DNA of 64,000 bases from Candidatus Pacearchaeota archaeon (GTDB lineage: Archaea > Nanobdellota > Nanobdellia > Pacearchaeales > GW2011-AR1). This document shows positions 8,603-23,082 of this stretch, one piece after another (position 1 is the first letter of the stretch; every line of letters starts with the position of its first letter). A program made the translations under genes and the position numbers. The notes beneath the pieces are model-generated. The model saw only the letters and a program-made list of their open reading frames with translations, did no database searches and was not told the origin of the DNA. The stretch lies in the NCBI GenBank assembly GCA_040879765.1, contig JBBDJQ010000001.1, forward strand, positions 204,263-268,262, read 5' to 3'.

Positions 8603-9976
8603 TTAATCTCTATTTATTTCTTTTTCAATTATTTCCTTGGCAACTTTGAAATCCGCTCTTTTGTTTGAGATTTTCATAACCTGGCCTATTAAGAAATTTA
8701 TGGATTCCTTTTTACCTTGTTTGTAATCTTCTGCAGCTTTTGGATTTTTTCTAATAACTTCTTTTGCTATTTTTTTAATCTCTGATTTTGAAGAAATCTT
8801 CTTAGAACTTTTAGCTTTCTCTTTCGGAGAAAATGATTTTGGAATAAACTCATTTAAAATTTCTTTTGCTTTTAATTCTGTAATGGTTTTTCTCTCAATT
8901 AGCTTTAGAAGCTCTATAAAATGATTTGTTTGAATTGAGACTTCATGAAGTTCTTTTTTTGAATAATTTAAAACTCTCAATAATTCTCCAGTAACCCAGC
9001 GACTTGCAAGTTTTGGTTCGACTTTTTTTATTATTTGTTCGAAAAATTCAACCAAATCTAAATTAGTTGTAAGGATTTCTGCATGTTTTTTCTCGATTTT
9101 ATGTTTTTTTATAATCCCTTTTATTTTTTCTTGAGGTCTTTCAGGTAAAGATTTTTTCTCTTTATCAATTTCTTTTTTATCCACTTTCAAAACAGGCAAG
9201 TCTGGTTCTGAAATAAATCTGTAGTCTTCTGCTAATTCTTTATCCCTCATCTTCATAGTCTTTCCAGAAATTTCATCAAACATTCTTGTCTCAAGTTTTT
9301 TTGCTAGCTCTCCTGGCTTGCTTTGCCTAGAAATTTCATATTCAATTGCCCGTTCTATGTTCTTTAAGCTGTTGATATTTTTTATCTCAACTCTTTCTCC
9401 TTTTAATTCAGGAATAGAAACATTAACATCTGCCTTGACTCCTAGGGTTCTATCAATTATTTTCATGTAAGTTAGAGTTTCGACTAATTGTTTCATCCAT
9501 CTTATGACTTGTTTTGAATTTATGAAATCTGGCTCTGTAACAATTTCAATTAAGGGATAACCTGATTTGTTATAATCTATTTCCCCTGTTTTTGGATTCC
9601 ATGCTGCAGGATCTTCTTCTAAATGCGCCTCGGTTATTTTTATGTTTTGGAAATTTCCATTTTCACAGAAAGGAATTACATGACTTCCAGAAATTGTGTT
9701 TTGATATCCTTTTGGTAAATCCGGCCAGCTGTAATGTTTTCTTTGCCAAGCCACTTTGGGATTAATTTTGCATCCAAGAATTAGTGCTATTTGAATTCCT
9801 TTTCTTATTGCTTTTTTATTTGGTAGCATGAGTTTTGCTCCTGGTTGCCCAGTGCAAATTGGACATATGTTTGTGTTTGGTTTGCTTATCTTTGATCCGT
9901 GTGTGGAATTACATGAACAGAATAATTTTTCCTTTGTTTTAAGATATCCATGGATTTCTAATCCTATTTTGACCAT
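8603..9976 (-). CDS. gatB: Asp-tRNA(Asn)/Glu-tRNA(Gln) amidotransferase subunit B
   Basis: KIGLEIH, NTNICPIC, YSWPDLPKGYQ, HLEEDPA, PLIEIVTEPD, C-terminal Yqey-like domain (FLIGQVMK). Confidence 0.97.
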   Translation of the reverse strand: MVKIGLEIHGYLKTKEKLFCSCNSTHGSKISKPNTNICPICTGQPGAKLMLPNKKAIRKGIQIALILGCKINPKVAWQRKHYSWPDLPKGYQNTISGSHVIPFCENGNFQNIKITEAHLEEDPAAWNPKTGEIDYNKSGYPLIEIVTEPDFINSKQVIRWMKQLVETLTYMKIIDRTLGVKADVNVSIPELKGERVEIKNINSLKNIERAIEYEISRQSKPGELAKKLETRMFDEISGKTMKMRDKELAEDYRFISEPDLPVLKVDKKEIDKEKKSLPERPQEKIKGIIKKHKIEKKHAEILTTNLDLVEFFEQIIKKVEPKLASRWVTGELLRVLNYSKKELHEVSIQTNHFIELLKLIERKTITELKAKEILNEFIPKSFSPKEKAKSSKKISSKSEIKKIAKEVIRKNPKAAEDYKQGKKESINFLIGQVMKISNKRADFKVAKEIIEKEINRD

Positions 9977-10054: not shown

Positions 10055-11338
10055 ATGACTTTAGAGAAGGTAAATCCTGGAGACTATGTTGAGGTAGATT
10101 TGATCAAGGATTCTTACAAAGGATTTTTCCTTGATGATTCTGAAAATAAGGGAGTTGCTTTGATAAAACTCGATTCAGGATATAATGTTGGATTTAATAG
10201 AAAAGATATTTTGAATTTAAAATTAATTAATAAGGCTTCAGCTAATGAGGATTTGCCTGACTTAAAAAAATCTTCTGATAGGCCCAATGTCGCTATGATA
10301 ATTACAGGAGGGACCATTGCAGCTAAGATGAATTCTAGAAAGGGAGGAGTTGATTGGCTTGATGAACCAAAATCTTTGTTTAAATTTTATCCGGAAATTT
10401 TTGATCTTGTTAATATTTCTAAAGTCGAGGTTCCTTTTATGAAGGCTTCTGAAGATATGGATTTTAAAGATTGGCAAAAGATAGCAAAAACTGTAAAAAA
10501 ACTTTTGAATGATTCAAATATTAAGGGAGTCATAATTACTCATGGGACTGATTTTTTACATTATACTTCTTCAATGTTGGGTTTCTTTTTGAAGGATTTG
10601 AATAAACCAGTTGTTTTAACTTATTCTCAGAAATCAATTGATCGTGCATCTTCAGATGCTAATTTGAATTTGAAATGTGCTGCTTTGGCTGCAATCTCTG
10701 AAATGGCTGAAGTTATGCTTGTTGGGCATGGGACAATTAATGACAATTTTTGTTTTGCTCTTCCAGGAAATAAGTCTAGAAAAATGCATTCATCAAGAAG
10801 AGACGCCTTTAAGGCTGTTAATGAAAAACCATTTGCCAAAATTTTTGAAGACAGGATAGAAATAATTAGAAATTATAATAAAAGGGACAATAAGAAAAAA
10901 GTTAAATTGGATTTGAAGTTTGAAAATAAAGTAGCTTTGATTAAATTTTATCCGGGGCAAAATCCGGACTTTCTTGATTATTATGTTAAGAAAAAATATA
11001 AAGGTTTAGTGATAGAAGCTTCGGGCCTTGGGCATTTGCCAAGTAGGAGATCTAGAAATTCTTGGATAAAAAAGTTGAAAGAAATTCAAGACAATGGAAT
11101 TACTGTTTGTATTACAACCCAGACAATTTATGGAAGGGTTGATGGATTTGTTTATTCTAATGGTAGAGAGGTTTTGAAAACCGGCGCTATTTATTTAGAA
11201 GATATGTTGCCCGAAACAGCTTTTGTTAAACTGGGATGGGTTTTAGGACATGGAGAGTGGATTAAGAGTAAAGAAATAATAAGACAGAAAATGCTTGAGA
11301 ATATTTCTGGAGAATTTAATGAAAGGTTAGAAGTTTAA
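10055..11338 (+). CDS. gatD: Glu-tRNA(Gln) amidotransferase subunit D
   Basis: N-terminal IKLDSGYNVG, asparaginase motifs TGGTIA and THGTD, KMHSSRRDAF. Confidence 0.96.
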   Translation: MTLEKVNPGDYVEVDLIKDSYKGFFLDDSENKGVALIKLDSGYNVGFNRKDILNLKLINKASANEDLPDLKKSSDRPNVAMIITGGTIAAKMNSRKGGVDWLDEPKSLFKFYPEIFDLVNISKVEVPFMKASEDMDFKDWQKIAKTVKKLLNDSNIKGVIITHGTDFLHYTSSMLGFFLKDLNKPVVLTYSQKSIDRASSDANLNLKCAALAAISEMAEVMLVGHGTINDNFCFALPGNKSRKMHSSRRDAFKAVNEKPFAKIFEDRIEIIRNYNKRDNKKKVKLDLKFENKVALIKFYPGQNPDFLDYYVKKKYKGLVIEASGLGHLPSRRSRNSWIKKLKEIQDNGITVCITTQTIYGRVDGFVYSNGREVLKTGAIYLEDMLPETAFVKLGWVLGHGEWIKSKEIIRQKMLENISGEFNERLEV

Positions 11339-11754
11339 TGTTTCTTTTTTTTGTGGAGGTTTTTTTCAATTCTTTTAAGCTGAGATTTTATTTCTAAGAT
11401 TGCTTTTTCAGCTCTTCTGTTAACTAGGTAATCATATTTTGCTTCAGCCCTATCTCTTTGATAGGTTCTATTTTGAGACATGAGAATTATTGGTGCTTGT
11501 ACTGCTGCTAGTGTCGAAAGTATGAAATTTAGTAAAATAAATGGATAAGGGTCCCAAGCTTTTCCGAATATTATCCAAGCAGTATTTATAGACATCCATA
11601 TTAACAAGAAAACCCCGAGGCTTATTATGAATGTCCAACTTCCTGCCCATTTTGTTAGTCCATCTGCAGCCCTTTGCCCAAAAGTTCTCGGGAGCTTACT
11701 AATTGGGTGCTCCACATCAAGAAACTTTGATTTGTGTTTCACCTTTTTTCCCAT
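11335..11754 (-). CDS. DUF1003-family membrane protein
   Basis: TFGQRAAD...GSWTFII...DPYPFILLNFILS...QAPIILMSQNR. Confidence 0.85.
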   Translation of the reverse strand: MGKKVKHKSKFLDVEHPISKLPRTFGQRAADGLTKWAGSWTFIISLGVFLLIWMSINTAWIIFGKAWDPYPFILLNFILSTLAAVQAPIILMSQNRTYQRDRAEAKYDYLVNRRAEKAILEIKSQLKRIEKNLHKKKKH

Positions 11755-11943
11755 TTCTTATCAAAGTATTTCTCAGTTATAAATTTATTTGAAGTTTTTA
11801 TAATTACTAAGGTTGAGGTGTTTAGCATTCTTTGAGATTATAAACTTTTTAAATAAAAAAGGATTAATCATATATCTGAATTTGATATAATTGCATAATT
11901 AAAAGTTAATTGAAGAAATAAAAGGAAGTCTTCTCTTGATTAA

Positions 11944-12372
11944 TTAAACCCTATCAGAGATTACTGCGCCGATTGATGAAGGAAAGGTAACTATTGCTAC
12001 TGTTTTAAATGCTAAAATGGCATTGTCATTCCAATGAGTTACATCTATAGACCATAGAAATAGGGCCACAACTATGAAAGAGATTATATAGGTTGCAAAA
12101 ATCCTTTTTGTCATTTCAGATAGGTGGTAAATTGGATTTTTCATTATGTTTTTTCTGTGGTAATGGTAATATGTGAAGATCCCTATGAAAAAGAATGTTA
12201 GGAGGATTATTACCAATATCTTGAAAATCGAAAGTGTTTCTCCAAGTTCCCAGACTTCTTGGGTGAAGCCTACAGGAATAGCTAATATAAATGCTCCAAT
12301 AATTATCTGCAAAAAATCATGGAAACTAACATTTGTTTTTATGGGTCTTTTCGAGTCTGCCTGATTTTTCAT
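11944..12372 (-). CDS. DUF2391-family membrane protein
   Basis: DFLQIIIGAFILAIPVGFTQEVW, four TM segments, FPSSIGAVISD. Confidence 0.75.
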   Translation of the reverse strand: MKNQADSKRPIKTNVSFHDFLQIIIGAFILAIPVGFTQEVWELGETLSIFKILVIILLTFFFIGIFTYYHYHRKNIMKNPIYHLSEMTKRIFATYIISFIVVALFLWSIDVTHWNDNAILAFKTVAIVTFPSSIGAVISDRV

Positions 12373-12480
12373 TTATCTGTTTCGTGATTCATCGTTATAA
12401 ACTTATTTAAATTACATTTATTAACTACTCTTGAGTTACTAATAGCAAGGTTTTTAAAGTAGAAACCAGTAGTTTGTTTT

Positions 12481-13284
12481 ATGAGTAGCAGATATATTAC
12501 TGGGGAATTAGTCAAAGAATTAAATAATGGGTTTTATCAGCTAGAGGACCATGATGAGTATGAGGTTGATGTATGTTGCCATCATAGGATGAGGAGAGCG
12601 ATAGAGAAAAACGCTAAATTAAATTCTTTTAGAATGGAAAATCCAAATACCGAGATTCCTTTTTCAATCCCTAAAAATAGAAAGCGCCATAGAATAAAAA
12701 AAGGAATAGAAAGTATTAATGCCGCATCTCAATGGGCTAAGGCTAATTTTGACCCAGATAATCTTGATGAATCCTTTTTTAGGGGAATTGCAAAAAGAAT
12801 TTTTCCAGACATGTATGCCGGAGACTTTGCATGGTATAGGGATACTGGAACAACAATAAGTGGTGCAAGTGTCACTCCTCCATACCCTTATAAATTACAG
12901 GAGATAGAAATTCCAAAGTTTACTGAAGAATTAAAATCTCTTTTAAAATACAAGGAAAAAATAAATGGGGTGGAAGCAGCAATTTATGCTCATCTGCATT
13001 TGGTGAGGATTCACCCCTTTGTTGATGGAAATGGAAGAACTTGCAGGGTTTTACAAGATACAATTTTGGATTCCTATGGAATTCCAGTTCCGGTTATAGA
13101 ATCTGGCGAAAGAATGACTTATTATTCTCTTTTAGATAGTGCTGTATATGATTGGAAACATAAGGGGGGAAAAGAAAGAGGAAATGTAACAAAAGGAGAA
13201 AGAATTTTTTATGATTACCTTGCAGGAAAGGTAAATATTTCACTTGAGAAGGTTATTGAAAGTTGTAATAAACACAACCAATAA
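12481..13284 (+). CDS. Fic-domain protein (AMP transferase family)
   Basis: Complete motif HPFVDGNGRTCR; N-terminal SFRMEN fits (S/T)xxxE(G/N). Confidence 0.92.
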   Translation: MSSRYITGELVKELNNGFYQLEDHDEYEVDVCCHHRMRRAIEKNAKLNSFRMENPNTEIPFSIPKNRKRHRIKKGIESINAASQWAKANFDPDNLDESFFRGIAKRIFPDMYAGDFAWYRDTGTTISGASVTPPYPYKLQEIEIPKFTEELKSLLKYKEKINGVEAAIYAHLHLVRIHPFVDGNGRTCRVLQDTILDSYGIPVPVIESGERMTYYSLLDSAVYDWKHKGGKERGNVTKGERIFYDYLAGKVNISLEKVIESCNKHNQ

Positions 13285-13319: not shown

Positions 13320-14765
13320 ATGTCTGAAGAGATTGATTATGAAAAAGTTGGCTTGAAGTGTGGTTTGGAAATCCACCAGCAATTAGACACTGAAAAATTG
13401 TTTTGCAATTGTCCTTCTCTTATAAGAAAAGACGATCCTGAGTTTTTTGTTGAAAGAAAACTTCATGCAGTTGCAGGAGAAAGTGGAGAAGTTGATAAGG
13501 CCGCAGAATATCAGGCAGCTTTGAAAAAAACATATTCTTATCAAGGATACTCAACAACTTGCTTGGTTGAATTTGATGAATCTCCTCCTAGAGAAATTAA
13601 TTCTGAAGCTTTAAGGATAGCAACTCAAATTTCTATTTTACTTAATGCAAAAATTATTCCAATAACTCAAATAATGAGGAAGATAGTTATTGATGGCTCT
13701 AATACTTCTGGCTTTCAGAGAACGGTTCTTTTTGCTAGGGATGGATTTGTTGAAACTTCTTATGGAAAAGTCAGGATAGATACAATTTGTTTAGAAGAAG
13801 ATTCTGCAAGAATTGTTTCTAAGGAAAAAGACAAAGTTATTTTTAGACTTGATAGGCTTGGAATTCCTTTAATTGAAATTGCAACTGCGCCAGATATAAA
13901 AAATCCTGAACAGGCAAAAGAAGTGGCACTTTATATTGGAAATGTTTTGCGGAGTTGTAAGGTTAAAAGGGGCTTGGGAACAATAAGGCAGGACGTCAAT
14001 GTTTCTGTTAAAAAAGGAAAGCGGGTTGAAATAAAAGGGGTTCAGAATCCTGAGCTAATCAAGAAAGCAGTTGAAGAAGAAGCTAAGAGACAGATTGGTT
14101 TAATTGAAAAGAAGAAAAAATTTGAATCAGAAGTTAGAAAAGTTTTGCTTGATGGAAAGACAGAATTTTTGAGACCAATGCCTGGAGCCTCAAGAATGTA
14201 CCCTGAAACAGATTTGCCTTTATTGAGAATTCATAGAGATTTTATTAATCATATAAAGAAGAATTTACCCAAATTAAGACAAGAATCCGAAAGAGAATTA
14301 AAAAGAAAAGGACTATCTCAAGAATCAATAAAGATGATTCTTTCTGGTTATTTAGATGACTTTGAAGAATTACTTAAAATTTATTCTAAAGATCCTGAAT
14401 TAATTGCAAAGATGCTTACAGTTTGGAGGAGAGAGATTTCTACAAAATCGAAAAAAACTTTAAAGGCAATGGAAGAGATTATAAACTTCGATGTTTTGTC
14501 AAAAATTTTAACTGAAGTAAAAAAAGGAATGTTAAGAAAAGAATATGTTCGTCAAATATTTTCTGATTTAGTTAAAGGGATTCCCTTAGAAGATTCTATA
14601 AGAAGGGAAGAATCAAACTTTGATGAGATTGAAGAAAAGATTATTTCGATTATAAAATCTAAGCCTGGGCTTTCTGAAAAGGCTTATATGGGATTGGCTA
14701 TGAAGGAATTTAAAGGAAAAATTTCTGGAAGTGAGGTGATAAAAATACTTAAGAAACATTTTTGA
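13320..14765 (+). CDS. gatE: Glu-tRNA(Gln) amidotransferase subunit E, short form
   Basis: GLKCGLEIHQQL, DGSNTSGFQRT, LEEDSAR, LDRLGIPLIEIAT, KRGLGTIRQDVN, RPMPGASRMYPETD. Confidence 0.96.
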   Translation: MSEEIDYEKVGLKCGLEIHQQLDTEKLFCNCPSLIRKDDPEFFVERKLHAVAGESGEVDKAAEYQAALKKTYSYQGYSTTCLVEFDESPPREINSEALRIATQISILLNAKIIPITQIMRKIVIDGSNTSGFQRTVLFARDGFVETSYGKVRIDTICLEEDSARIVSKEKDKVIFRLDRLGIPLIEIATAPDIKNPEQAKEVALYIGNVLRSCKVKRGLGTIRQDVNVSVKKGKRVEIKGVQNPELIKKAVEEEAKRQIGLIEKKKKFESEVRKVLLDGKTEFLRPMPGASRMYPETDLPLLRIHRDFINHIKKNLPKLRQESERELKRKGLSQESIKMILSGYLDDFEELLKIYSKDPELIAKMLTVWRREISTKSKKTLKAMEEIINFDVLSKILTEVKKGMLRKEYVRQIFSDLVKGIPLEDSIRREESNFDEIEEKIISIIKSKPGLSEKAYMGLAMKEFKGKISGSEVIKILKKHF

Positions 14766-14804
14766 TATCAAACATTTTAAAAATGTATCTTGTTTATTTT
14801 TTGC

Positions 14805-15137
14805 ATGGATGACGGAATTAGTGTTGGAGGAATTGTTAAGACCTCTTTAGTTACTGCTTTAACCATAGCAGCAGCACTGGTTTGGAAGGATGTTTTCACC
14901 CATACAATAGAGATTCTTTTTCCCGGAGAAATTCTTTTTTATCAATTTATTGGAGCAATTATTGCCACAGTCCTTGTTGTGTTAGTTATTTACGTGGTTC
15001 TTAAAACAGAAAGCAGAGCAGAGATTCTTATAAGGGATTTAACTCATGTAGATAAAAAGAAGAGGAAGAAAATAATAAAAGAAATTAAAGAAGCGGAAAG
15101 AAAAAATGAAAAAAGAAAGTATAGGAAATCTAAGTAA
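14805..15137 (+). CDS. Small membrane protein (DUF5654-like)
   Basis: ATG at 14805 preferred; SLVTALTIAAALVWKD plus a second TM helix. Confidence 0.6.
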   Translation: MDDGISVGGIVKTSLVTALTIAAALVWKDVFTHTIEILFPGEILFYQFIGAIIATVLVVLVIYVVLKTESRAEILIRDLTHVDKKKRKKIIKEIKEAERKNEKRKYRKSK

Positions 15138-16413
15138 GAATCGGATTTTGATAAAAGATGTTTTTTCAAAAAAATCAGGGAGCGTTGAGATTTTTGGATG
15201 GGTTTCTAACACAAGAGACCTTAGCAAGGTGAAATTCCTTTTAGTCAGAGATTCTTCTGGGACGATTCAAGTTACGGGAATCAAAGGAAAAACAGACGAC
15301 AAGATTTTCAAAGATATGGAAAAGATTTCTCGAGAATCTGTGGTTTATGTTAAAGGTTCTGTCAAAGAATCCAAGCAAGCTCCTGGAGGAAAGGAAATTA
15401 ATCCTGATGAAATTATTGTTTTAAATTCTGCAGAAGAATTACCAATAGATGTTATGGATTTTTCAAAAACTGAATTGCCAAAGAGATTGGATTATAGATT
15501 TTTGGATTTGCACAGAAGAAAAATCCAAAGTATTTTTAATATTCAAGGACAGATTGCAGCATCTTTCAGAAAATTTTTTTATGATGAAGGATTTAAGGAA
15601 GTTTTTTTGCCTTCAATAATTTCGAGTTCAAGTGAGGGGGGAACAGAATTATTTCCAGTTAAATATTTTGAAAAGAAAGCTTATCTTGCTCAAAGCCCCC
15701 AATTATATAAACAGATGATTGCAACCTCTCCTATAGAAAAAGTTTTTACAATTACTCCTGTTTGGCGAGCAGAGAAACACAATACTGTTAGACACATAAA
15801 TGAAGCAAGACAGATGGATATCGAAGTTGCATTTGCTGACCAAGAAATAGTTATGAAACAGCTTGAAAAATCTGTCCAGTTTATTGTTAAGGAATTAAAT
15901 GAAAAATGTAAAGATGACTTGGAAGTTCTTGAATTAAAGTTGAAGGTTCCAAAGGCAAAGTACATTTCTTACGAGGAAACTTGTAAGCTTTTGAATATTT
16001 CTTATGGAGAAGATCTAAATCCTGGGAATGAAAAAGATTTGGAGAAGAAATTTCCAGACACAATTGTTTTTGTACATTCCTGGCCAGCTAAATTAAAACC
16101 TTTTTACATAATGCCTAAAGATGAAAATGCTAAAGCAGAGTTGAGTGAAGGTTTTGATGCTATTTACAAAGGGCTTGAAATTTCCTCGGGAGGACAAAGA
16201 ATTCATCTACCTGCTTTATTGGAAATTTCTTTGAAAGATAAAGGATTGGATCCAAAAGAGTTCAAATCCTACATTGATAGTTTTAGATTTGGAGCCCCCC
16301 CTCATGCAGGATGGTCTATTGGATTAGAAAGATTAACAACTGTTCTTTGCGGTTTGGACAATATAAGAGAAGCCACCCTTTTCCCAAGAGATAGAGATAG
16401 ATTGGAGCCTTAA
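15106..16413 (+). CDS. aspS: Aspartyl-tRNA synthetase, archaeal short type, probably non-discriminating
   Basis: OB-fold GWV..RD, AYLAQSPQLYKQ, motif 2 WRAEKHNTVRHINE, motif 3 GLERL; Pro in L1 loop (KQAPGG). Confidence 0.93.
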   Translation: MKKESIGNLSKNRILIKDVFSKKSGSVEIFGWVSNTRDLSKVKFLLVRDSSGTIQVTGIKGKTDDKIFKDMEKISRESVVYVKGSVKESKQAPGGKEINPDEIIVLNSAEELPIDVMDFSKTELPKRLDYRFLDLHRRKIQSIFNIQGQIAASFRKFFYDEGFKEVFLPSIISSSSEGGTELFPVKYFEKKAYLAQSPQLYKQMIATSPIEKVFTITPVWRAEKHNTVRHINEARQMDIEVAFADQEIVMKQLEKSVQFIVKELNEKCKDDLEVLELKLKVPKAKYISYEETCKLLNISYGEDLNPGNEKDLEKKFPDTIVFVHSWPAKLKPFYIMPKDENAKAELSEGFDAIYKGLEISSGGQRIHLPALLEISLKDKGLDPKEFKSYIDSFRFGAPPHAGWSIGLERLTTVLCGLDNIREATLFPRDRDRLEP

Positions 16414-17241: not shown

Positions 17242-17508
17242 ATGTCAAATGATTTTTTATTCCACAAGGTTTCTGAGGATGAAAAGAAATCTATAAAGCA
17301 AGAAGCAAAGGAGATTATGGAAAAATTTTCTGAGAAGCTTTCTAAAATAGATGATAAATCCTTAGAAGTTTTTGTAGAGAGGAATGAGTTTGAAAGGGAA
17401 GAGAACGAAAATGAATCTAAGGTTGATGAAGATTTTAGGAAAAGAATTCTTGATAATGCTCCAAATAAAAATGAGGATTTTATTCTGGGAGAAAAGAAAG
17501 GATGGTAG
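17242..17508 (+). CDS. gatC: Amidotransferase subunit C (GatC-like)
   Basis: 88 aa acidic protein, C-terminal RILDNAPNKNEDFI, position upstream of gatA. Confidence 0.7.
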   Translation: MSNDFLFHKVSEDEKKSIKQEAKEIMEKFSEKLSKIDDKSLEVFVERNEFEREENENESKVDEDFRKRILDNAPNKNEDFILGEKKGW

Positions 17509-17978
17509 ATTTAGAAAAAATTGATTGGGAGGGGATTATCATTTCTGCCATAGAAAACCCAAAATCTTTTGATTTTTGTGGATTCAAGGAGTTGAAAGAA
17601 AAATCTATTGAAGAAGAAAAGCATTTCAAAGAAAAAACTGTTTTTGAGAATAGCAATTATAAACTTATTTTTAAGATTGGATGGGATAAAAGAAAATTTT
17701 TCTTTTTATATGAACATAAAATAATTAATAAAAATTCTGGAGAAGTTATAGCTAGAGTTGATGAATCTCATGGTCTCCATAGGCCTCACAGGCATATTCA
17801 TTCTGGAGAATTTGTAATCTTTAACCCAGAAGCTTTAGTTGAAAAGTTGGAGCACCCAATCATTTCCTTGATAATAAATTCTGAAAGCGAAGAAAGGAAA
17901 AAAGAATGGATATTTCAATTAGCTAATGAATTAAAATTTTCACAAAAGAATTGGAGATACTTAAAATTAGGAAAATGA
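17502..17978 (+). CDS. Hypothetical protein with RxDxxHG...PHxH motif
   Basis: Overlaps the gatC stop and the gatA start (ATGA). Confidence 0.7.
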   Translation: MVDLEKIDWEGIIISAIENPKSFDFCGFKELKEKSIEEEKHFKEKTVFENSNYKLIFKIGWDKRKFFFLYEHKIINKNSGEVIARVDESHGLHRPHRHIHSGEFVIFNPEALVEKLEHPIISLIINSESEERKKEWIFQLANELKFSQKNWRYLKLGK

Positions 17979-19300
17979 CAACTGAACAAAAATTAAAAAA
18001 ATATTTGGAAGAGATTGAAAGAAATGATAAAAAAGGAAAAGAAATAAATGCCTTTCTTCAATTACGGAATGAAAAAGAGTTAATTAATGAAGCAAAAGAA
18101 ATTGATAAAAAAATAAAATTGGGAAAGGCAGGGAAGCTTGCTGGAAAAATAATTGCTGTTAAAGCAAACATAAATGTTTTGGGCTTGAATATTTCTTGTG
18201 GAAGTAAGGTTTTGGAAAATTATAAAGGAACTTATGATGCAGATGTTATAAAAAAAATAAAATCTGAAGATGGTTTGATCATTGGTTTAACCAATATGGA
18301 TGAATTTGCTTCTGGTTCTTCTGGAGAAACATCTGCTTTTGGTCCGACAAGGAATCCAAAGAATTCAGAATTAATTCCCGGAGGTTCTTCAAGTGGCTCA
18401 GCAGCTTCGGTAAGTGCTGGTTTTTGTGATATGGCTTTAGGTTCAGATACCGCAGGAAGTATAAGGAATCCTGCAAGTCATTGTGGAGTTGTGGGTATAA
18501 AACCAAGCTATTCAAGTGTTTCAAGATATGGATTAATTGATTTATCAATGAGTTTAGATCAGATTGGACCTTTAGCAAAAAATGTTTATGAATCTGCACT
18601 TTTGCTTGAAACCATAATGGGAAAATCTGAAAAAGATTCTATCTCTCAAGATTCCTCGATAAATCTTAAAGAAATTGAAAAAGTCCCAAAAAATATTGTT
18701 GTTGGTTTGTTGGATTTTGATTTTGGAGATGAAGAAATAAGGAATAAAATAAATGAGAAAGCTGAAGAAGCAGCAAATAAATATGGTTGGATTTTGAAAA
18801 AAATTTCTTTACCTTCGATTGAATTTTCAGTTGAGACCTATTATCCTTTGGTTTATGTCGAATTTTTTTCTTCTACTAGGAGATTGGATGGAAGAAGATA
18901 TGGATTAAAAATAGAAGATGCTGCTGGTCCTGAAGTTTTGAGAAGAATACTTGGAGGTTTAGAAATAAGCAAGGCTGAATATAGTGGGAGGTATTATCAT
19001 AAGGCTTTGAAAGCCAAAAAAATAATTGAAAATGAATTTGACAAAGTTTTTAATAAAATTGATTGCATAATTTCTCCGACTGTTCCAAAACTACCTCATA
19101 AAATTGGAAGTAAAATTTCAGTTGAAGAAATGTATGCTTATGATGCCTTAACTGTTCCTTCTAATTTGGCAGGAAATTGTGCAATTTCAATTCCTGTCTC
19201 GGAAATTGATGGAGTTCCTGTTGGATTGCAAATTGTTTGCGATAAATTTCAAGAAGAAAAGATGTTTAAGATTGCAAGAAGTATAGAAAAATTAGGATAA
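17975..19300 (+). CDS. gatA: Amidotransferase subunit A (amidase signature)
   Basis: IAVKAN, TNMDEFASGSS, PGGSSSGSAA, GSDTAGSIRNPASHCG. ATG at 17975 preferred over TTG at 17951. Confidence 0.96.
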   Translation: MTTEQKLKKYLEEIERNDKKGKEINAFLQLRNEKELINEAKEIDKKIKLGKAGKLAGKIIAVKANINVLGLNISCGSKVLENYKGTYDADVIKKIKSEDGLIIGLTNMDEFASGSSGETSAFGPTRNPKNSELIPGGSSSGSAASVSAGFCDMALGSDTAGSIRNPASHCGVVGIKPSYSSVSRYGLIDLSMSLDQIGPLAKNVYESALLLETIMGKSEKDSISQDSSINLKEIEKVPKNIVVGLLDFDFGDEEIRNKINEKAEEAANKYGWILKKISLPSIEFSVETYYPLVYVEFFSSTRRLDGRRYGLKIEDAAGPEVLRRILGGLEISKAEYSGRYYHKALKAKKIIENEFDKVFNKIDCIISPTVPKLPHKIGSKISVEEMYAYDALTVPSNLAGNCAISIPVSEIDGVPVGLQIVCDKFQEEKMFKIARSIEKLG

Positions 19301-23009: not shown

Positions 23010-23082
23010 CGTCCTGGAGAGGACTCGAACCTCCGACAACATGGTTAACAGCCATGTGCTCTACCTGCTGAGCTACCAGGAC
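23010..23082 (-). tRNA. tRNA-Asn(GTT)
   Basis: Acceptor GTCCTGG/CCAGGAC with G73, anticodon arm CATGG-CTGTTAA-CCATG, T-loop TTCGAGT; no encoded CCA. Confidence 0.96.

Follow-up and report, generated by a model that had tools for sequence, protein, structure and literature searches.

An insertion-less GatE in a Pacearchaeota genome and the probable repeated loss of its AspRS-like domain in DPANN archaea

GatE is the kinase and transamidase subunit of the archaeal amidotransferase GatDE, which converts Glu-tRNA(Gln) to Gln-tRNA(Gln). Canonical members of the family (2D6F, 1ZQ1; TIGR00134/NF003107) are 619-633 aa long, whereas a gatE-like gene in the window (the whole 64,000-nucleotide stretch of a Candidatus Pacearchaeota archaeon genome analysed here) encodes 481 aa. 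This raises the question of what such a short gene encodes, what became of the remaining length and whether the role of the enzyme has changed with it. With a probability of about 0.83, the gene is a functional GatE whose insertion domain a clean in-frame deletion would have removed, one of many such losses that would have occurred independently in small-genome DPANN archaea. The gene and the parts of its product are as follows.

13320..14765, + strand: gatE, an entry of the ORF list with 481 aa plus stop; insertion-less GatE
13320..14120, + strand: cradle (catalytic) domain, part 1, residues 1-267; aligns to 2d6f_C 1-266 with 287 bits
14094..14132, + strand: 13-residue linker, residues 259-271, IGLIEKKKKFESE; from the alignment gap and the comparison of junctions
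14121..14234, + strand: cradle domain, part 2, residues 268-305, with the RPMPGASRMYPETD motif; aligns to 2d6f_C from 396
14235..14762, + strand: helical domain and YqeY-like tail domain, approximately residues 306-481; aligns to 2d6f_C up to 613

Two curated NCBIfam models of GatE recognise the 481-aa protein above their cut-offs (NF003107, 509.5 bits against 456; TIGR00134, 471.9 bits against 319.55), with the model match split in two, first at model positions 2-270 of 630 and then over the C-terminal part. Pfam GatB_N covers residues 13-309 (E 2.6e-57), and PF02637 (GatB_Yqey) is recorded as a precomputed Pfam match on many close homologues of the short GatE. Across 60 short homologues, with identities down to 40%, 42 columns are invariant and include the active-site motifs GLEIHxQ, EED, RQDxN and RMYPETD. 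The invariant residues comprise E17, H19, R120, K121, Q133, R134, E159, E160, E186, R223, Q224, D225, N227, E237 and K239 in the first part of the cradle domain and R285, R292, Y294, E296 and D298 in the second. An AlphaFold2 model built on the alignment of these 60 homologues reached a mean pLDDT of 90.5, and its residues 306-480 are all-helical. Foldseek searches with this model returned GatE chains at the top (1zq1_C, E 9e-39, then 2d6f) and GatB chains after them. In structural alignment the protein shares 35-37% identity with canonical GatE, to which it further corresponds in its cradle, helical and tail domains, its active-site motifs, the presence of an encoded gatD and tRNA(Gln) genes with an A1-U72 pair. 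As the textbook insertion is lacking while the other GatE features tested were found, the protein is filed as an insertion-less variant: it is a GatE orthologue and not a canonical member of the family.

The literal GatE-specific tail motif GXXAXGX was not found in the 481-aa GatE either. A correlation of this change with the deletion of the insertion was considered and rejected, as the motif is missing in most long DPANN GatE too; 112 of the 127 long sequences are without it, as are 47 of the 48 short ones, and it is therefore not tied to the deletion.

In phmmer searches against PDB chains, residues 5-268 aligned with residues 1-266 of M. thermautotrophicus GatE (2d6f_C) and residues 269-479 with residues 396-613, and P. 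abyssi GatE (1zq1_C) likewise aligned in two pieces. The part of 2d6f_C left unaligned (residues ~267-395, ~130 residues) is the AspRS-like (GAD) insertion. In a MAFFT alignment of 182 sequences, the largest gap in the row of the 481-aa GatE falls between residues 267 and 268 (nt 14120/14121), and the insertion columns hold either 0-5 or ~110-150 residues per sequence, with one intermediate and with 0 in the 481-aa GatE. The two-piece alignment and the counts of insertion columns therefore show that the missing length corresponds precisely to the insertion domain and to no other part. A preliminary description of this locus, made from the letters and a list of reading frames, had claimed that the GatE lacks its AspRS-like insertion at 14040-14200; phmmer, the NCBIfam and Pfam models and MAFFT all bear this out, and the gap lies inside that interval. 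The alignment with M. thermautotrophicus and P. abyssi GatE that it proposed left the insertion unmatched. The junction text that it quoted is present in ORF 13320-14765, save that the quotation left out the residues FES; the junction reads ...VEIKGVQNPELIKKAVEEEAKRQIGLIEKKKK-FES-EVRKVLLDGKTEFLRPMPGASRMYPETD.

A GAD domain, or the missing length at another position, was also looked for in the protein and in the 526-kb genome (525,751 bp on two contigs, with a completeness of 93% judged by marker genes), and neither was found. The Pfam model of the GAD domain of bacterial-type AspRS (PF02938), whose fold is that of the canonical GatE insertion, matched neither the 481-aa protein nor any other part of the whole genome, while the same model picks out the insertion of GatE in the four archaeal genomes used as controls. 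A tblastn search of the genome with six insertion domains, taken from the closest long relatives, gave nothing significant (best E 0.59), nor did a custom insertion HMM against its six-frame translation (best E 1.6). These three whole-genome searches argue against a split gene and a stand-alone insertion domain in this assembly.

At the junction itself, the 13-residue linker, a Lys-rich turn, takes the place of the ~145 residues that separate the conserved RQ from VRK in canonical GatE. This RQ-VRK junction measures 8-13 residues in short forms as opposed to 144-148 in long sister sequences, and the linkers vary by clade in length and sequence, which speaks for recurrent change, with 13 residues in the clade of the 481-aa GatE, 12 in the short forms of a genus designated g3 and 8-10 elsewhere. 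In the AlphaFold2 model, pLDDT is 95-97 per 10-residue block across the junction, where a helix (244-263) is followed by a loop and a strand (271-275).

The survey of GatE lengths in DPANN archaea that had been suggested showed the short form to be widespread, usual in the host's order and present in three DPANN phyla. A search of protein databases recovered at least 120 clusters, formed at 90% identity, whose proteins are 467-505 aa long and share 59-72% identity with the 481-aa GatE; several carry the name GatE and come from MAGs of Pacearchaeota or Nanoarchaeota, and among the best 150 representatives at 50% identity the lengths are bimodal (~455-500 versus ~580-660 aa). Public records thus already name such ~480-aa proteins GatE, while no description of a GatE without the insertion was found in a full-text literature search, in which subscription journals were thinly covered. 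Counted by genome, the two forms are distributed as follows.

Host's order: GatE in 149/151 genomes; short ~140; full-length 5 (G008, G102, G047, G080, G118)
Host's phylum sample, all one class: GatE in 139/141 genomes; short 52, long 87
Phylum of an Aenigmatarchaeota MAG: 61 genomes with GatE; short 21, long 40
Micrarchaeota: one MAG short, another MAG long
Thermoplasmatota, as a negative control phylum: GatE in 68/71 genomes; short 0/68

Both forms occur in two families of the class-level sample, and the ~55 named non-DPANN loci that were recovered all gave long matches. The short GatE is thus not peculiar to the host genome. Within the order it is the usual form, in at least two phyla of DPANN archaea it is common, and as far as sampled it is a DPANN feature and a common one. 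Rounded genome sizes, compared by eye, did not obviously differ between genomes with the short and the long form. Seven Thermoplasmatota genomes (G412, G424, G444, G452, G458, G464, G470) have GatE open frames of 677-729 aa, for which a single match, at model positions ~3-270, is listed at E <= 1e-60, and summed in-frame scores hint at further, weaker matches. These long frames may carry an enlarged or strongly diverged insertion, a trend opposite to that in DPANN archaea.

Gene trees of GatE were built with the insertion columns taken out. In a FastTree tree of 182 rows the short forms are scattered among the long ones, and parsimony needs 21 changes, of which at least 13 are forced by well-supported branches. 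An IQ-TREE tree of 70 rows gave 20 changes, at least 12 of them forced, with some long and short forms paired tightly as sisters at 97-100% support. An AU test, with long and short groups defined by the trait itself and run after the first tree had been inspected, rejected the best tree that confined every long form to one side of a branch (delta lnL 821.6; p 2.35e-5). The change between the short and the long form is thus recurrent, and a single origin of the short form is rejected on the evidence of the trees and the AU test. At the level of the order, the GatE tree follows genome taxonomy. Within it the long G008 groups with the short G030, G014 and G020 in family f9 (support 100/99), three long sequences are sister to seven short ones in genus g3, and the 481-aa GatE belongs to an all-short clade that is nested with strong support among long GatE. 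From this topology, at least three changes must have taken place inside one order.

The change counts carry no direction. The scatter of the short forms and the AU rejection are read as recurrent loss, with at least three independent losses in the host's order and at least 12 across the sampled tree probably having occurred in these small-genome archaea. The direction is read as loss because every sampled non-DPANN GatE (68 from Thermoplasmatota and the ~55 named loci) is long, because the similarity of the insertions tracks that of the core within the order (Spearman 0.34, 7,875 pairs), and because the long G102 shares the locus gatE-aspS-gatC-gatA with the short forms of the host genome, G030 and G015. 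It is unlikely that the short form is instead a primitive, GatB-like GatE from before the insertion that was kept in DPANN archaea, with the long forms arising by domain gain. Such an origin would agree with the GatB-rooted trees, in which GatE begins with short branches (first P0254, next P0173 paired with P0195, the latter from an Aenigmatarchaeota MAG; support 84-87%), and with short junctions (…GKK/V..EVR) that resemble the GatB junction (…KKGEK/VEQQT), but it sits badly with the nested position of the host's clade among long forms. As the AU test also rejects a single gain, this reading would need many insertions of a homologous 130-aa domain at one residue, and the insertion domains of the long forms within the order are one another's closest relatives. 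At the very base of the GatE tree the short form could still be primitive, or alleles could have recombined. The G-K-K-type turn that many short GatE forms have in a shape resembling that of GatB could likewise reflect shared ancestry or recombination instead of convergence.

If the insertion was lost, the question arises whether the substrate of the enzyme changed as well. The genes that bear on this lie close by in the window.

8615..9973, - strand: gatB, genuine and separate (TIGR00133, 420.4 bits against 314.8; G000:C1:212877-214235, -)
10055..11338, + strand: gatD, glutaminase partner of GatE, 427 aa (NF003217, 424.4 bits against 310)
15106..16413, + strand: aspS, AspRS of the archaeal non-discriminating type, lying directly after gatE (NF003483, 504.3 against 353)
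17242..17508, + strand: gatC-like gene, 88 aa, below cut-offs (TIGR01827, 42.1 against 52.1; NF000681, 40.5 against 64)
17951..19300, + strand: gatA, 449 aa (TIGR00132, 487.6 against 481.1)
23010..23082, - strand: tRNA-Asn (GUU), substrate of the GatCAB route (ARAGORN, C1 c[227272,227344])

The product of gatD carries the Pfam domains GatD_N, Asparaginase and Asparaginase_C, the model that matches aspS is that of an aspartate--tRNA(Asn) ligase, and a GluRS is encoded in the genome. Both tRNA(Gln) genes (UUG and CUG) have A1-U72 and A73, whereas tRNA(Glu) and tRNA(Asn) have G1-C72. GatCAB presumably serves as a separate route to Asn-tRNA in the host genome, its GatB acting with GatA and GatC and the 481-aa GatE with GatD. 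Across the order, GatB is encoded in 88 of 151 genomes and AsnRS is found above its cut-off in 60, with both in 2 and either in 146. The two switch between closely related genera and are almost mutually exclusive, which points to AsnRS having repeatedly taken the place of the indirect Asn route. The AsnRS of G118 scores 597 bits compared with ~380-455 in other genomes of the order, which suggests an independent origin. Where relatives encode AsnRS without GatB (e.g. G069, G088, G124 and G041), asnS is often found no more than a few kb from gatE.

Given the presence of GatD, of tRNA(Gln) genes with A1-U72 and of a separate Asn route, the 481-aa GatE is therefore most likely still a Gln-specific amidotransferase, as predicted from the content of the genome. 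A changed role towards tRNA(Asn) finds no genomic support, GatB or AsnRS being kept in those 146 of 151 genomes. It is accordingly very improbable that the loss lets the short GatDE act on Asp-tRNA(Asn) as well, as a dual Glu/Asp amidotransferase. The position of gatE directly upstream of the non-discriminating aspS, here and in relatives, would suit such an enzyme, as would the predicted role of the insertion in precluding the binding of this AspRS. However, the near-exclusive GatB or AsnRS is the usual pattern, and the few genomes with neither are incomplete; the host genome itself has gatB, gatA and the gatC-like gene, and its tRNA(Asn) has G1-C72 rather than the A1-U72 of both tRNA(Gln) genes. 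A dual function is thus unsupported, the presence of GatB and AsnRS being complementary and nearly complete across the 151 genomes.

It is scarcely credible that the gene is an artefact of assembly, is in decay or is a GatB paralogue under the wrong name, for although its length equals that of the GatB models and GatB_N is the only Pfam domain seen, the GatB models stay far below their cut-offs (all at least 314; best NF004012, 163.5 bits against 338), the true gatB lies elsewhere, the catalytic residues are invariant in an intact reading frame, and the same length recurs in those 120 or more clusters from independent assemblies and in ~140 genomes of the order. With a separate gatB present, the 481-aa protein is therefore not the GatB of this genome. 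Its resemblance to GatB of GatCAB (S. aureus 2DF4/3IP4, A. aeolicus 3H0L; TIGR00133) lies in the three-domain architecture, in about the same length without the insertion and in a similar tight turn where GatE normally has it. The difference lies in an identity of 20-26% and in a branch with 100% support that separates the GatB outgroup from GatE in the trees. The view of the preliminary description that this is a streamlined, GatB-like GatE thus holds for the domain order of cradle, helical domain and tail, and not for ancestry, since the protein nests among long GatE. For annotation, ~480-aa GatE proteins of DPANN archaea should not be mistaken for GatB or for fragments.

The loss bears on the function proposed for the insertion, which, as the preliminary description stated and the literature agrees, is to govern interactions with synthetases. 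The insertion and the cradle domain have been modelled as a concave pocket for non-discriminating GluRS that would clash with non-discriminating AspRS, and M. thermautotrophicus GatDE binds the former without tRNA (KD 40-100 nM) and does not bind the latter (PMC2943598, PMC2330236). This pocket has been proposed to allow a tRNA-independent transamidosome of non-discriminating GluRS and GatDE, and acquisition of the insertion in early archaea to have steered GatDE to Gln, leaving Asn to GatCAB (PMC2943598). For GatB and bacterial GatCAB, hand-over has been proposed to be mediated by tRNA or to occur by free diffusion (PMC2943598, PMC2330236). As the docking role comes from a structural model and indirect binding data of one species, the effect of losing the insertion is uncertain.

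[quoted passage not shown] With these domains kept, the enzyme should still pair with GatD and amidate Glu-tRNA(Gln). The short GatDE would bind its substrate through A1-U72 and the D-loop, GatE would phosphorylate the glutamyl side chain, and ammonia from GatD would amidate it. What is absent from the 481-aa GatE is the surface that in canonical GatE is proposed to hold GluRS and exclude AspRS, as modelled in M. thermautotrophicus. With this docking surface gone, direct hand-over from GluRS would be replaced by one that is tRNA-mediated, or would be absent, as proposed for bacterial GatCAB; in this lineage, hand-over is thus most likely tRNA-mediated or by free diffusion, by analogy with that system. 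The same clean deletion recurs in related small archaea, and the domain therefore appears dispensable. An insertion-less GatE conserved in hundreds of genomes beside long sisters amounts to a natural test of the docking role, and sisters of long and short form within a single genus allow clean comparisons. If the short GatE is active and Gln-specific, the insertion would be needed for neither catalysis nor specificity, and the docking role alone would remain.

The partner from which the enzyme would receive Glu-tRNA(Gln) is itself reduced. The only GluRS of the genome, encoded outside the 64-kb window (G000:C1:445149-446372; L030:1477-2700, +), has 407 aa and matches positions 6-390 of the 560 of TIGR00463 (archaeal GluRS), with the catalytic Pfam domain alone; tRNA-synt_1c_C (PF03950) had no match anywhere in the genome. 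This truncation, which removes the anticodon-binding domain, occurs in ~40 of the 66 genera sampled in the family. Perhaps, then, the path to Gln-tRNA is minimal here, the GatE being without the domain modelled to hold GluRS and the GluRS without its anticodon-binding domain, so that the two enzymes would meet only on the tRNA. In this tentative and rather doubtful reading, tRNA(Gln) would be selected by GatDE, which would read A1-U72 and the D-loop with its cradle and tail. If true, the repeated losses would make the GatE insertion an optional docking accessory and not what makes GatDE the archaeal Glu-amidotransferase. A general co-variation of the GatE and GluRS truncations was considered and rejected: nearly all genomes of the class-level sample, including those with short GatE, have a full-length GluRS, and in the long-GatE genome G102 the GluRS matches model positions 3-398 alone. 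The two truncations are therefore not generally coupled and coincide here.

Some minor features of the junction and of the locus may be added. In genus g3 the linker of the short GatE (n=7, L031-L037) mostly contains a Cys-x6-Cys pair, e.g. RQKECIKMGKCISEVR, which is present neither in the long g3 sisters nor in other short clades. This Cys pair may staple the new turn through a disulfide or a bound metal. In the host genome, the interval between gatD and gatE (11335-13284) holds two opposite-strand genes for small membrane proteins (11335-11754 and 11944-12372) and a 267-aa ORF (12481-13284) with a Fic-type motif, HPFVDGNGRTCR. Downstream of gatE, a 115-aa ORF (14790-15137), hydrophobic in its N-terminal half and rich in Lys in its tail, overlaps the start of aspS, and a 158-aa ORF (17502-17978) lies between gatC and gatA, overlapping both.
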